Assembly: GCA_051294375.1 (NCBI GenBank)
Contig: CM119263.1
Span: 19,268,625 to 19,332,624, forward strand
Reading direction: 5' to 3'
Length of the DNA: 64,000 nucleotides
From: Paraspadella gotoi
Taxonomy: Eukaryota > Animalia > Chaetognatha
Every line of letters starts with the position of its first letter. Positions within the stretch are counted from its first letter, which is position 1. Position numbers and translations under genes: made by a program. Below, piece by piece: positions 9,501 through 15,500 of this stretch. Below the pieces are notes generated by a model, which saw only the letters and a program-made list of their open reading frames with translations, was not told where the DNA came from and did no database searches.

Positions 9501-12500
9501 GTTTATTTAAACTTAAGATTAAAAAAATAAACGAGAATAATTTGACTTTAAAATGTCCTTTTCCGTGAAATAGTGATACAAAAATATGAAATAGAATTTC
9601 TTATACGGCACACATATAAACACAATGACACAATAACACAAACACTCTAGCACAACAACACATCGCCCTCTTTACCTTTTTACAAAATAAGTTTAAAATA
9701 GAATTTAAAATGATAAGATGCGAGATGGTTAGATTCGTTGGGTTAGTCTGTGCGTCTCGTGAGTTTTTTGGTTTAGCACCTAAAGTGGTTTGAAGGTTAC
9801 TGTGGTAAGTATTTTTGAAAAATTGGAAGAATATACTTAAATTTAATAAAGTTTTAAGAATATATAACGATTTGATGTTTAAGCCTAAGCTGAGGACCGA
9901 GGAGAGAAAATTTGATTAAATCGTGAGCGGTCGTTGACACTCTCTAACTGCCTCGCACTCTCCTCTCTCATAAATTTTACATCAGTCTACGTGGCAGCCA
10001 TTCACCTTTGTTTCTTTGGCGGATTTTCCTATCTAATTGAAATATTAATTTTTCTGTCGTTCGATGTCCCACCATTTAAAACAATATTGAGAATTTCTTG
10101 TAACTTTTTTGAAAAAAAAAATTTGATGGAATTAATTCTAAATTTTAAAACGTATGCTTATTTTTTGTTTTGTTTTTGTTTACATCTAGAACATCGACGG
10201 ATGGGAGGGAAAGGACATCGGCCAGAGTTGCAACGAATTGCTCATGGATGGAACCCTCTCCAAGTACATGCTCAAAAAAGGTAACTAATCAAATTTTGAG
10301 AGACTTTAGAAACAATAGAAAAAAATAAAAATAGGAAGAAAAAAATATGAAAGCTAATCGAAAAAATGGTGTAATTCTTCATTTGCGGAGGAAAGATGGG
10401 AATGAGTTATAATGTGGATCGAGGGCAAAAAAAGGAAGAAGTGCGCAAAAGGAAAATGCAAAATGGGGAAAAACTGATTCCAGCTGTGAAAAGATATTTT
10501 TCTGTCTTTTTTCGACTGGCTGCTCATAATTCCAATAGGGACGAGAGAGAGAAAGGGAGGGTGAGGGAGAGGCGGAGAGGGAGAGGAAAAGAGGAAGAGG
10601 GGGAGGAAGGAAAGAAGGAAAGAAGAGAATGAGAGAGCATGGACTTACAGACACGCAAGAAAACAAGTATGGGATTTATTTGAAAAGAAAGTTTTTTTTA
10701 CTTTTTTACAATTTTTTATCAATTTTCCGTTTTGTTTGTTCCTTATCATTTTCTCAATATTACTCTCCTTTGCAATTTCATCTTTACCTTTTGTCTTTTT
10801 TCTTTTAACCATTAAAATTTTTTCAGCTTTATCCTTTTTTCACAATGAAATTCAAATAGATGCATAGCGCTTCATTCGCATTGCGGGGACCATACCTCAT
10901 TGATATTCTCTCATCTTTTACAGACTTGGATTTTTCATTCGCGCTTCATCCGATAATCTTAGATGCCAGAATAATTTATGACTGACAAATGGTCAACTTG
11001 ATATTTTTTATTTAAATGAGGGCGTATTTCCTGACACCCTGACCGAGGAATAAAAAAAGAAAGATCATAGAACTTTTAGATTTTAGTACCATTACAAATG
11101 ACTGAGCAGGAAGAGAGAGAGAGAGAGAGAGAGAGAGAGAGGAGAAGAGAGAGAGAGAGAGAGAGAGAGAGAGATAGAGAAATAGTCTGTAGGTTCTCGT
11201 TTTTCTCAAGCTCGAGTCGTTTACGAGAAAAAAGGCAAAAAATATTTCTGGTCAGTTGTCTTTTCCGTTTTTTCTCTGACTGGCTTCAAGTAAACTATCT
11301 TAAAAACTGTTATTTAACTGAAAAACAGTCCATACGTTTTTATTCGTAGTATATATGGTCAAAGCTTGAACCATAATATTTTGTTTTCCTTCAAATGTCT
11401 TATCGTTATATGAAATTGGTACAACCAATATAAATGATGATTTTATCAAACCCATAATTTTTTAAGCTTGCTTTCTCCCCCCCCCCATCCAGGCCCCTCC
11501 GAGCGCCAGGTCTACCTCTTCGACGGACTGCTCGTCCTCTGCAAACCCAACAACCGCCGAACGTCCGTCACGGGTTCCCTGGCCGAGTTCAGACTCAAAG
11601 AGAAATTCCCGATGCGGAAGTTGGAAGTGACGGACGTTGAAGACTCGGAGGAGCTGAAGAACGCCTTCGCCGTCACCGTCAAAGGTCTGAGAGGAGGATG
11701 AGTCGATGGTTGACGACATTGCACGACAATAATGATTATTTATATAGATATATGGATCAAATAATTATTAATCATATAAAATAATTGGGTAACCCGGGGT
11801 ATTTCGATTATAAGTAGTCGAAATTGTTAAAAAAATATTTTGAGATTAAATTTTACATTGTGGCAGCAAGACTTAAAGCTGCCTCACTGCTGTCCGTCCT
11901 CAGCCTCGTCTCAATGGCTGAGCAGGCTAAATCATCTCATTCCATCCGTGCGTCCCGGGTTCAATCCCTGGGTATCCCGGTTCTGGCTTAAATGTGACGG
12001 TGCCGGTATAAACATGCCAGTGACAGGAGGCGGTCACTGAGGGTCCGCAGCCCCTACGCCAGTTGGTGAGATACCCCGCGCCACGGGTATCACAGGCTAT
12101 CCTCCCGTTGCCATAAGTGGTGAGCCCTACTCTCGAACACGCAACCGCTGCGCACCATGCGCTAACGCTTACGTCGCTTAGGGTATGCATATCACGCCTA
12201 TGCCCTACTTCTCTGGTAACGCTCCAGACTCGCTCGCTCGCTCGCCCGCTCGCTCTCATTATGGCAATGAGATCAAAAGCTTCTCTCAGACATCTCCTCA
12301 GGATTGAGGCCCCTGTGGAGAAGTCTGGTGGGGGATCCTGTGGCAGCAAGACTTAAAGCTGCCTCACTGCTGTCCGTCCTCAGCCTCGTCTCAATGGCTG
12401 AGCAGGCTAAATCATCTCATTCCATCCGTGCGTCCCGGGTTCAATCCCTGGGTATCCCGGTTCTGGCTTAAATGTGACGGTGCCGGTATAAACATGCCAG

Positions 12501-15500
12501 TGACAGGAGGCGGTCACTGAGGGTCCGCAGCCCCTACGCCAGTTGGTGAGATACCCCGCGCCCCGGGTATCACAGGCTATCCTCCCGTTGCCTTAACATC
12601 TTGTTTTCTGTTCAGGACAAACAAAAAAATAAATTGAGAAAATATTCTCCGTTCTTATTTTCATTTCTCTCATAAAAATATCTTCCTCAGACGATCAAGC
12701 CAACACTCTGACCCTGACGGCCAAAACTCCAGAAGAGAAGAGAAATTGGATGTTCTGTTTAGTAGCGCTGCACACGAGGAGCATGCTAGAGCGAATGTTG
12801 GACAGTCAGTTGGCGGAGGAAGAGAAGGCGCAGCCGCTCCAGTTGCCCTCACCCAACGTTTACAGGTCGTTGAGGGTTAGAGGGAAAGCGTTAAAAAAAA
12901 AGTCAATCTTTTTTTTATTTTGTTTTATTATCTTATAGATAAACTAAAAATGTCCAAGGGAAAGTAAAAAGTCAGCAAAGATTATTAGAATTATCTAAAA
13001 ATGTGGAGGATGAATTAAAGATAAAGTATGGCAGAGGTCACTGGTGAGGACAAAGCGAGAGACCGAGAGCTACAGAGATAACCAGACCCCCGCGGGAACA
13101 AACGATTTTTATTGATTTCCTGTTTTATCACTGAAAAAAAACAAAAAAAACAAAAGACTAAATAAAAAAGTTTGTTCAAACAATGCCGGATCTGCCCACG
13201 ATCATTAGCGGTAAGCAGCTGATCAGATAATTAATTAATTAATTTTTTATTTTATATTTTTTTATAGTAAATGTAAATGACCTCGATCATTAGCGGTAAG
13301 CAGATGATCAGTTAACTAATTAACTAATTAATGGAATAATTATTTAATTGATTTATAAATTAATTGATTAATTAATTAATTATTACAGTTTGTATTGAAA
13401 TTTAATACAAAAATAAAAAGCATAATAAAATAGAGAAACTTTTTTATATTTTCCTTTTAAACTCATTTCCACTCGGACGATTCCATCGAAACTTGATTTC
13501 CAGCTCAATCACATACTTCTTTACCCACACACAAAATTTTAAGTAAATCGCCTCATCCACTCATAAATAATTAGCATTCATTACTAATAGGGGATGGACT
13601 GAAAGACAGACAGACGGACGGACATCAATTTTTTACATAATTTGATTTTGTGACATGATCTCAGGGAATGACCGAAAAGATTAGGGGGGCGGACCGTGGG
13701 ACCGACAAAGTGAATTATAGAGCCGGAATCTGCTGTCAGCAGACCCGCCTAAAAATGACCTCATCCGATGACCAATAACTTAACCCCCGTCACGCCATGG
13801 ACCAATGGGATCATAGATTCGCGGAGGCGGACACCGACTACAACCTCATCTTCGAACCTGACCAAAACTCTGGCGGCAACCCGGTCGTCCGCGGCGGAAC
13901 CCTCCTCAAACTCATCGAGCGCCTCACCTACCACATGTACGCCAGCCCCAAGTTCGTGCGGACCTTTCTCACGACCTACCGATCCTTCTGCACTCCCAAT
14001 CAGTTCCTCGACTTTCTCATAGAGCGTTTCAAGATTCCGGGTGAGTGTCTGCTCTCTCTCTCTCTCTCTCTCTCTCTCTCTCTCTCTCTCTCTCTCTCTC
14101 TCTCTCTCTCTCTCTCTCTCTCTCTCTCTCTCTCTCTCTCTCTCTCCCTCCCCCCCATCTCCCCTCCTCATTCTCGAGGCCAACGATGACAGTCTGCTAA
14201 TACAGTATTGTTGACTGAATATGGGCGAGCGGCCAATGTTTATGGCCAATGGCTCGTGTCTGGCCATTGGCCAGCATATGCGACTCTCAGTCTTTGCCTC
14301 GTTCTCTTATCGAACGATTAGTCTCGTCGAAGAAAGAAAAGTCACTATATGGGTTCTTATCTCTGGATTTTTTTCTCTCACTTTTTATTTTTATCTATTT
14401 TTTTCTTTTTGCTTTTTTTTTTTGCCTTTTAAAGTTGCCCTAACTTTTTTTTTCTGACAATCATTTGTTTCCCAGCATCTGCGTCGAGAGTCTTATCACC
14501 GCAGAAGAAGCCAGAGCCTTGCGTCGCGTTTATAATAGAGCCAAGAGTCCTAGTCACATTTGATTTTTTATCACATACTCTCGCTAAAGTCCCAAATTAG
14601 ACCATAGTTGATCAGATATGAAAATCCGAATCGACATAATTACTTCAAAAATGTTTTTGTTACCTTCCCGGCATTGTCATTTTTCATCCTAGATCCCGAG
14701 CTGCCCGCCGAGGAGAGAGAAATGGTGGAACAGGGTCTCAGCTCGACGACCCTGAAGCGATTCAGGAAAGAGTACAGTCAGCCGGTGCAGCTGCGGGTTC
14801 TCAACGTGCTGCGTCACTGGGTCGACCATCACTTCTACGACTTTGAACGCGACCCGTCGCTGCTGCAAAAGCTCATCAAGTGAGGAGTTTGGGAAAGAAG
14901 TGAGAGAGAGAGAGGACGTTTTGTGTGATGAAACCTTTTTTTGCATTGGCTCTGATGTTACATAGTGAAAATACATAGAGAAAAAAGTTTATGAAGAGTT
15001 TCCCCACTGAAGATGAAAGTAAAAACGGTAAAAATGTAAACGGAGAGCGCAAGCGTTTTCTTTAAGGGGTCCCCGTGAAAACTGGAAAGTGTGGGTTGCA
15101 GGGTGTGGAAAAAGTGACTGGTTAGACATGCAAGAGAAATTGTGAGGCTCTCGTGAAACCGTAATTATGAATTCCGAGCAGCAGACTTTCTAAATCCAGA
15201 ATCTGGTCACGTGTGAGAAAAAGGTTTTTTCTTTAGTTGAGACTGGAATGAGTTTTTCATTTTCGTGAAAGAATCTACGATACTCGTTTATTTCCTTCGA
15301 AACACAAAACCATCATCGTCTTTACTATCAAATTTAAGCTTTCGTAAATTACCCTCAAAATAATTAAAATAATAATAATAATAATAGTAATAATCATTAT
15401 AATAAAAATCATCATCATCGTTATCTTTATCATTATCATAATAATCATCATCGCCATCCTAGAATGAACAATATAGAGAAAAATAAAAGAATTAATAGTT

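Follow-up and report, generated by a model that had tools for sequence, protein, structure and literature searches.

A Helenus-type miniature retrotransposon of the chaetognath Paraspadella gotoi with a predicted twister ribozyme in each long terminal repeat

A stretch of 64,000 nucleotides from the chaetognath Paraspadella gotoi (contig CM119263.1, positions 19,268,625 to 19,332,624 of the forward strand; the window, hereafter, is this whole stretch) contained at 11859..12595 (+) a 737-bp element made of two long terminal repeats (LTRs) of 257 bp and an internal region of 223 bp. Each LTR carried tRNA-type promoter boxes followed by a predicted twister ribozyme. We favored, with a confidence somewhat better than even, the interpretation that this is a young, non-coding, Helenus-type mini LTR retrotransposon that bears predicted twisters and likely spreads in the manner of a plant LTR retrozyme, via a 480-nt RNA circle. 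The new part is the predicted ribozyme inside a Helenus-type LTR; the other parts are known.

Anatomy, genomic setting and promoter boxes

In a sequence alignment, LTR1 (11859..12115, with TG...TA ends) and LTR2 (12339..12595) differed at 2 of 257 sites, and the element was flanked by the 4-bp target-site duplication (TSD) ACAT at 11855..11858 and 12596..12599. A primer-binding site (PBS)-like sequence beginning with TGG lay 2 nt past the end of LTR1 (12118..12130), and its best match among the PBS sequences in Kojima's list was tRNA-Trp (11 of 13 positions by eye; PMC10886601). The two LTRs, the TSD and the PBS-like TGG had all been described in an earlier sequence-only reading of the window and were seen as described; the polypurine tract (PPT) that it placed before LTR2 was present, though short (12327..12335, 8 purines in 9 nt, separated from LTR2 by 3 nt). 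The internal region (12116..12338) was without coding match in the list of open reading frames (ORFs) and in Pfam. The same reading had found no credible ORF. Indeed, the only ATG-initiated ORF of at least 50 amino acids (110 amino acids, minus strand) had no Pfam match, and with 3-13 stops in each of the six frames of the predicted circle a coding role was ruled out. The 3′ end of the LTR (12108-12116) was complementary over 9 nt to internal positions 12259-12267 and was paired beside the PBS in the predicted fold.

A solo LTR, 98% identical and with its own 4-bp TSD (ATAT), was located at 19847..20103 (+); its twister differed by a single mismatch in P4 and a single change in P1. The two-difference LTRs and this solo LTR with a TSD of its own indicate that the family is young and multi-copy. 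The full element was contained, in sense orientation, in a GT..AG intron of the host gene (11685..12690, +), delimited by a spliced joint in sequencing run X9. Protein similarity searching identified the gene as Son of sevenless (about 4060-20980, +), with many short introns; an exon of it matched the closest named Son of sevenless proteins of animals, from several phyla, at about 60-69% identity, and three further proteins reached 78-84%. Full element and solo LTR were both intronic and on the sense strand of this same gene.

Structurally, the element is a Helenus-type terminal-repeat retrotransposon in miniature (TRIM). Under the name Helenus, TRIMs have been described whose LTR contains a promoter derived from a tRNA; they have a PBS and a PPT, their TSDs are of 4 bp in animals, and Gypsy elements are the inferred partners (Kojima 2024, PMC10886601). 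With Helenus and TRIMp3 the element shares its short, non-coding two-LTR form, A and B boxes in the LTR, a 4-bp TSD and solo LTRs, with a candidate PBS and PPT in addition, and its 737 bp fall within the 311-1263 bp reported for Helenus (PMC10886601). In the consensus Helenus LTRs examined, the tRNA-like part mostly lies near the LTR 3′ end and is often followed by a T run (PMC10886601), whereas in the window element it occupies the 5′ half of the LTR and is followed by the twister. The sequence-only reading had known of no description of the combination of LTR, tRNA promoter and twister in animals and had brought in Cassandra for comparison. Cassandra is not the closest relative, Helenus being closer, and the union of LTR and tRNA promoter in animals had already been published under the latter name (PMC10886601); what stands as new is the ribozyme. 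In the main text of the Helenus paper the word 'twister' does not occur and 'ribozyme' appears only in the title of a reference, and no twister was recognized by eye in the consensus LTRs examined from its supplement (PMC10886601).

Box A was located at 11915..11926 (LTR2 copy at 12395) by pattern and by comparison with the Helenus box motifs (PMC10886601), and box B at 11958..11967 (LTR2 copy at 12438), inside a T-arm-like hairpin. TRGCY and GGTTC were both present, with box A ending in AGG instead of YGG. The paired pattern occurred in the window in the three LTR copies only, and ARAGORN found no tRNA gene. The boxes thus stood in each LTR directly upstream of the twister, where the sequence-only reading had put them. 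The first run of four T residues downstream was at 12604, with none earlier, which is compatible with RNA polymerase III (Pol III) read-through through LTR2. Selection against Pol III terminators was considered and dropped, since the shuffle P values gave no support for it.

An alternative would retain the ribozyme and the circle, derive the RNA from RNA polymerase II read-through or from an upstream LTR promoter, and regard the A and B boxes as a relic. It is consistent with the sense-strand intronic position of both copies, with the promoter activity found upstream of the ribozyme in a plant retrozyme LTR (PMC9695139), and with the discussion of the Helenus paper, in which transcription by Pol III is not yet validated for Helenus itself (PMC10886601). 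The boxes are nevertheless near consensus, have tRNA-like spacing and lie just upstream of the ribozyme, and this alternative was assigned a small probability.

The predicted type-P5 twister

By descriptor, covariance models and folding, a type-P5 twister was predicted in LTR1 (11983..12062), and an identical one in LTR2 (12463..12542). Cleavage would occur at U12009^A12010 in the first, with G 11996 as the general base, and at 12489/12490 in the second. On the plus strand, the motif comprised a 5-bp P5 stem (11983-87/12058-62), P2 (11992-95/12012-15, 4/4 paired), G11996-A11997, pseudoknot T1 (11998-12000/12045-47, CCG/CGG, 3/3 paired), a minimal P1 octamer (12001..12008), pseudoknot T2 (12016-17/12050-51), a P3 of 7 bp (12018-24/12033-39; 22-nt P3) and P4 (12040-43/12052-55, 4/4 paired). 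The conserved bases of the core, both pseudoknots, P2 and P4 were present in the order of type P5, and every core element listed by the sequence-only reading was found at the position it had given. The motif shared with the type-P5 twister of Rfam (RF02684) the permutation and element order, the catalytic G and A and the pairing of both pseudoknots; it differed in a P1 of only 2 bp, a first pseudoknot of CCG/CGG, a C at rice position A28 and a sub-threshold score.

The twister descriptor, which was composed after the sequence had been seen, matched only the three LTRs in 128 kb and nothing in 20 block-shuffled windows. It matched none of 5000 composition-matched shuffles of the 480-nt unit and none of 132 unrelated loci, and it recovered 37 of 46 phage twister loci. 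These phage loci (L121-L166) had been fetched by a P5-twister pattern that fixed the loop sequence, so that they were uninformative on natural loop variation; 16 of the 20 tested were Rfam Twister-P5. Their element order was that of the LTR twister, several having a 22-nt P3 as here. A covariance model built from 20 of the 46 ranked LTR1 and LTR2 first in the 128 kb, at full length and in the predicted register, with a low score (11.7 bits, E 0.53); the solo LTR was not among the matches listed. Several of the phage type-P5 twisters have a full P3 hairpin, and one group of them lies on contigs of 70-150 kb.

In Rfam, no twister family reached its gathering threshold in a scan of the whole window, and a scan of 1 kb gave no twister at E<=10. 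When 111 nt were searched, twister-P1 was the top of 4227 families (17.6 bits, E 0.13, gathering threshold 67.2). The covariance check proposed with the sequence-only reading thus produced no significant score, and it named twister as the best family on the segment. The P1-type register suggested by Rfam was dropped, as it left P2 mismatched at 2 of 4 positions and T1 without a partner. No hammerhead family was found in the element by the Rfam scans. A likeness to twister arising by chance in a GC-rich LTR would accord with the lack of an Rfam match at threshold and with a descriptor written after the sequence was known. The empty shuffles and unrelated loci, the first place of twister among the Rfam families on the segment and the first rank of the LTRs with an independent, phage-built model all speak against it, and we gave chance a very low probability.

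The departures of the motif from the twister core were compared with a mutational scan of the rice twister, in which G13, G30, A46 and G48 tolerate no substitution (PMC5113685). All four were retained in the LTR twister. The departures were a C at rice position 28 and a G27 paired with C47 in T1. The rice single mutant A28C had a relative activity of 1.00, and C27G had 0.13 alone and 0.86 when combined with G47C (PMC5113685); the columns of this matrix were counted by hand, and the A28G diagonal of 0.48 agreed with the tabulated fraction cleaved, supporting the indexing. A29 was kept here, and the rice A29C row was near zero among the values seen (PMC5113685). Consistent with tolerance, natural twisters with an A-to-C change at the trans A.A pair and with P1 defects showed no significant loss of cleavage (PMC11662667). 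Constrained folding placed the twister fold of the core 3.4 kcal/mol above the minimum free energy (MFE), a distance that ranged from 0.8 to 6.5 kcal/mol among 26 phage twisters. The twister of the sequence-only reading was therefore supported by the sequence, by the shuffle-controlled descriptor and by mutant data from the literature, and lacked support from the covariance scores, which stayed below threshold. We consider that the LTR motif is quite probably a functional twister.

The octamer of P1 was predicted to pair with a second copy of itself at 8 of 8 positions (-10.9 kcal/mol), as 1.9% of random octamers do, and this dimer pairing was lost in the solo LTR (6/8, -1.3 kcal/mol). In amphibians, hammerheads that combine a weak stem with a palindromic tetraloop are much more efficient in cleavage when dimeric (PMC7229834). 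By analogy, we hypothesize that a transcript containing both LTRs could cleave as a dimer via its self-complementary P1 strands. If this is true, only transcripts that reach the second LTR would be cut efficiently, solo LTRs and finished circles would be spared, and the puzzle of sense-strand intronic solo LTRs would be eased.

The predicted 480-nt unit and its replication

Between the two predicted cuts lies a unit of 480 nt (12010..12489), the presumptive circle, which contains the PBS, the PPT and one permuted LTR and has no repeated R region. In plant retrozymes double cleavage removes R, and the RNA, it has been argued, must be circular for reverse transcription (PMC4918200). A circle would likewise be needed here because a unit cut in both LTRs has no terminal repeat, and the monomer-to-circle logic of the sequence-only reading is that of the published retrozyme model (PMC4918200). 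RtcB closes animal retrozyme monomers in vitro (PMC7229834). The sequence at the circle junction would be the same as in the genomic LTR. The unit folded moderately better than its shuffles, with z of about -2.2 in both linear and circular form; among 100 shuffles folded as linear RNA one did as well, and among 60 folded as circles two did. The twister core was sequestered in its predicted MFE structure.

The proposed cycle would begin in LTR1, where Pol III would initiate a short distance 5′ of box A and then read through LTR2. The twisters would then cut at 12009/12010 and 12489/12490, perhaps aided by pairing of the P1 strands, and the unit, with 5′-OH and cyclic-phosphate ends, would be closed by a host ligase of the RtcB type, as in animal hammerhead retrozymes. 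A host tRNA would prime at the PBS, and a Gypsy-type reverse transcriptase passing more than once round the circle would restore two LTRs. Insertion by an integrase would leave the 4-bp TSD, the part of this last step that was seen. Solo LTRs would result from recombination or from shorter cDNA.

Contigs from sequencing runs provided hints only. Part of the element was present in 13 of the 17 runs listed, none of which was recorded as RNA. The contigs of four runs were compared with the window, and X9 was taken to contain RNA because of the spliced GT..AG host joint. The element family was present in X9. There, contig depth was about 7 for the contigs of host exons and zero across most bins of the flanking intron; it reached about 900 over the internal region and about 12,000 at the junction of LTR and PBS. 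Summed over both LTR copies, the depth was roughly 8,000-13,000, near that of the junction. This ratio of about 1:1 is a hint of unit-length element RNA, linear or circular, which it fits better than DNA or solo-LTR read-through, and it suggests that most of the expression comes from a subfamily with another internal region. Of the six loose ends listed in X9, two began at 12009 and 12491, at most 1 nt from a cut site, each in one contig. Variants among the runs were few: essential twister bases were changed in one contig at 5% depth and in one decayed copy in another organism. A contig of run X10, from another species, matched only the LTR end and PBS (12085-12146, 7 differences) and continued in related, diverged sequence; it apparently keeps the hairpin 12069-12090 and probably represents a related family, whose ribozyme could supply covariation.

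Besides the sub-threshold Rfam scores and the low score of the phage-built model, several points weigh against a twister-driven circular cycle. As a monomer, P1 was a 2-bp stem with no stable hairpin, compared with a long P1 in most phage P5 twisters, and with flanking sequence the twister fold lay 4.9-7.0 kcal/mol above the MFE. The two core departures were tolerated in the rice twister singly, in another ribozyme and not in combination. The copies available for comparison were three near-identical LTRs, as scans of sequence collections gave no relatives: of 120 loci from a metagenome scan with a loose pattern none resembled the element by BLAST or matched the descriptor, and two viral scans for LTR-twister motifs gave 12 loci without descriptor matches and no loci, respectively. 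The absence of TTTT was not statistically unusual (P 0.33 and 0.88), and that of TTT had P 0.004 with mononucleotide and 0.20 with dinucleotide shuffling. Contig depth is a poor measure of expression, the contrast in X9 may equally reflect high copy number, and the loose ends listed were 10 of 80. Neither the primer tRNA nor an autonomous partner was identified in the window, no genome-wide search having been made. Finally, an efficient cutter in sense-strand introns of an essential-type gene could be harmful.

Some of these points would be accounted for if the twister were a largely inactive passenger, captured with a tRNA-headed piece resembling a short interspersed element (SINE), in an ordinary Helenus that replicates from uncut linear RNA. 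The sub-threshold covariance scores, the collapsed P1 and the sense-strand intronic insertions fit this alternative, and Kojima proposes an origin of such LTRs by SINE insertion (PMC10886601). Decay would not be expected to leave the pattern observed, with both pseudoknots and all essential bases intact, the T1 pair compensated and the loop change of the tolerated and not of the harmful type; moreover, two wasp Helenus LTRs appear by eye to hold another ribozyme class at the same position. We judged the passenger explanation rather improbable.

An active twister might also merely trim the 5′ end. The cut in LTR1 would then drop the tRNA-like head, the second cut would often be escaped, and the linear RNA would be copied, with the terminal repeat 12010-12115 serving ordinary strand transfer and circles arising as by-products. 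Cleavage could be incomplete, given the weak P1 and the competing folds; in Perere-3 RTE retrotransposons the 5′ end is processed by twister variants (PMC8501958); and other Helenus families in the supplement of PMC10886601 have spread without a visible ribozyme. With identical ribozymes in both LTRs, however, neither cut is favored, and plant retrozymes of the same layout yield abundant circles (PMC4918200). This alternative was considered unlikely, with an appreciable chance of being correct, and release of a circle by cleavage in both LTRs remained the preferred interpretation.

Relation to known systems and other features of the window

Plant LTR retrozymes likewise have a ribozyme motif in each LTR (predicted in the present case), a PBS and PPT, a 4-bp TSD and no ORF (PMC4918200). 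They differ in their type III hammerheads, LTRs of 300-400 bp and RNAs of 600-1000 nt (Cervera 2016, PMC4918200), compared with the predicted twister, 257-bp LTR and 480-nt unit described here, and a tRNA-type promoter is not described in the passages of that paper that concern them (PMC4918200). By this analogy the element likely works like an LTR retrozyme, with a predicted twister in place of the hammerhead by which these are defined.

A second candidate was recognized by eye in Kojima Data S1. The LTRs of Helenus-2_SyJa and Helenus-2_SyUm, from Synergus wasps, have directly behind their promoter boxes an apparent complete type III hammerhead that is unmentioned in the text of PMC10886601: a GUC triplet, a stem I of 7 bp, CUGAUGA, a stem II of 4 bp, GAAAC and a stem III of 6 bp, with 12 nt of complementarity between loops I and II. 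Both families resemble the window element, again by eye, in placing the boxes within the 5′ half of the LTR and an apparent ribozyme after them, in an LTR start of TGTGG and in a Trp-type PBS; they differ in the ribozyme class and in having runs of four T residues in their internal region. If the Synergus hammerhead is read correctly, the recurrence of a promoter-then-ribozyme LTR with two ribozyme classes argues for function, and together with the twister reported here it suggests an unrecognized group of animal LTR retrozymes.

Animal non-LTR retrozymes are similar in their small circular RNAs released by ribozymes, ligation by RtcB and dimer-dependent ribozymes (Cervera and de la Pena 2020, PMC7229834), and differ in being tandem repeats with type I hammerheads and without LTR, PBS or PPT (PMC7229834). 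The twister variants of Perere-3/RTE are also twisters that serve a retrotransposon (Liu 2021, PMC8501958). In that case the retrotransposon is coding and of the non-LTR kind and carries one twister, at its 5′ end, and the word 'circular' is absent from the main text of that paper (PMC8501958). Twister-P1 is enriched with plant Copia/Gypsy elements, according to one sentence of PMC11933835, and twister-bearing circular RNAs have been reported from metatranscriptomes (bioRxiv 10.1101/2022.07.19.500677). Full-text literature searches, with subscription journals and Repbase outside their reach, turned up no paper that describes a twister in the LTR of a TRIM or a Helenus ribozyme; the supplements of 10.1101/2022.07.19.500677 and PMC11662667, which lay outside the comparison, could each list the element sequence.

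More broadly, and with a confidence a little short of even, we propose that animals harbor unrecognized Pol III-driven LTR retrozymes, of Helenus type, with an interchangeable ribozyme and replication through circular RNA, and that the twister of the window element acts as a two-copy dimer of P1 palindromes. To our knowledge, no function has been assigned to most natural twister ribozymes. If true, the proposal would give twister a defined role in producing the circular intermediate through which an LTR element replicates, and would carry the LTR retrozymes beyond plants, to an animal, and beyond hammerheads, to twisters. It would suggest how an LTR element with a Pol III promoter sets its RNA ends, and it predicts further sub-threshold ribozymes in repeat libraries. 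Circular RNAs are also expressed with engineered Pol III/twister systems, of which the element would be a natural counterpart.

Elsewhere in the window, an inverted duplication of 7.3 kb (40575-47890 and 50068-57395, 98.6% identical) lay beside assembly gaps at 40549-40573 and 49372-49589, and is either a recent duplication or an assembly artefact. Exons of the Parkin co-regulated protein (PACRG) were present at 26545-27000 (+).

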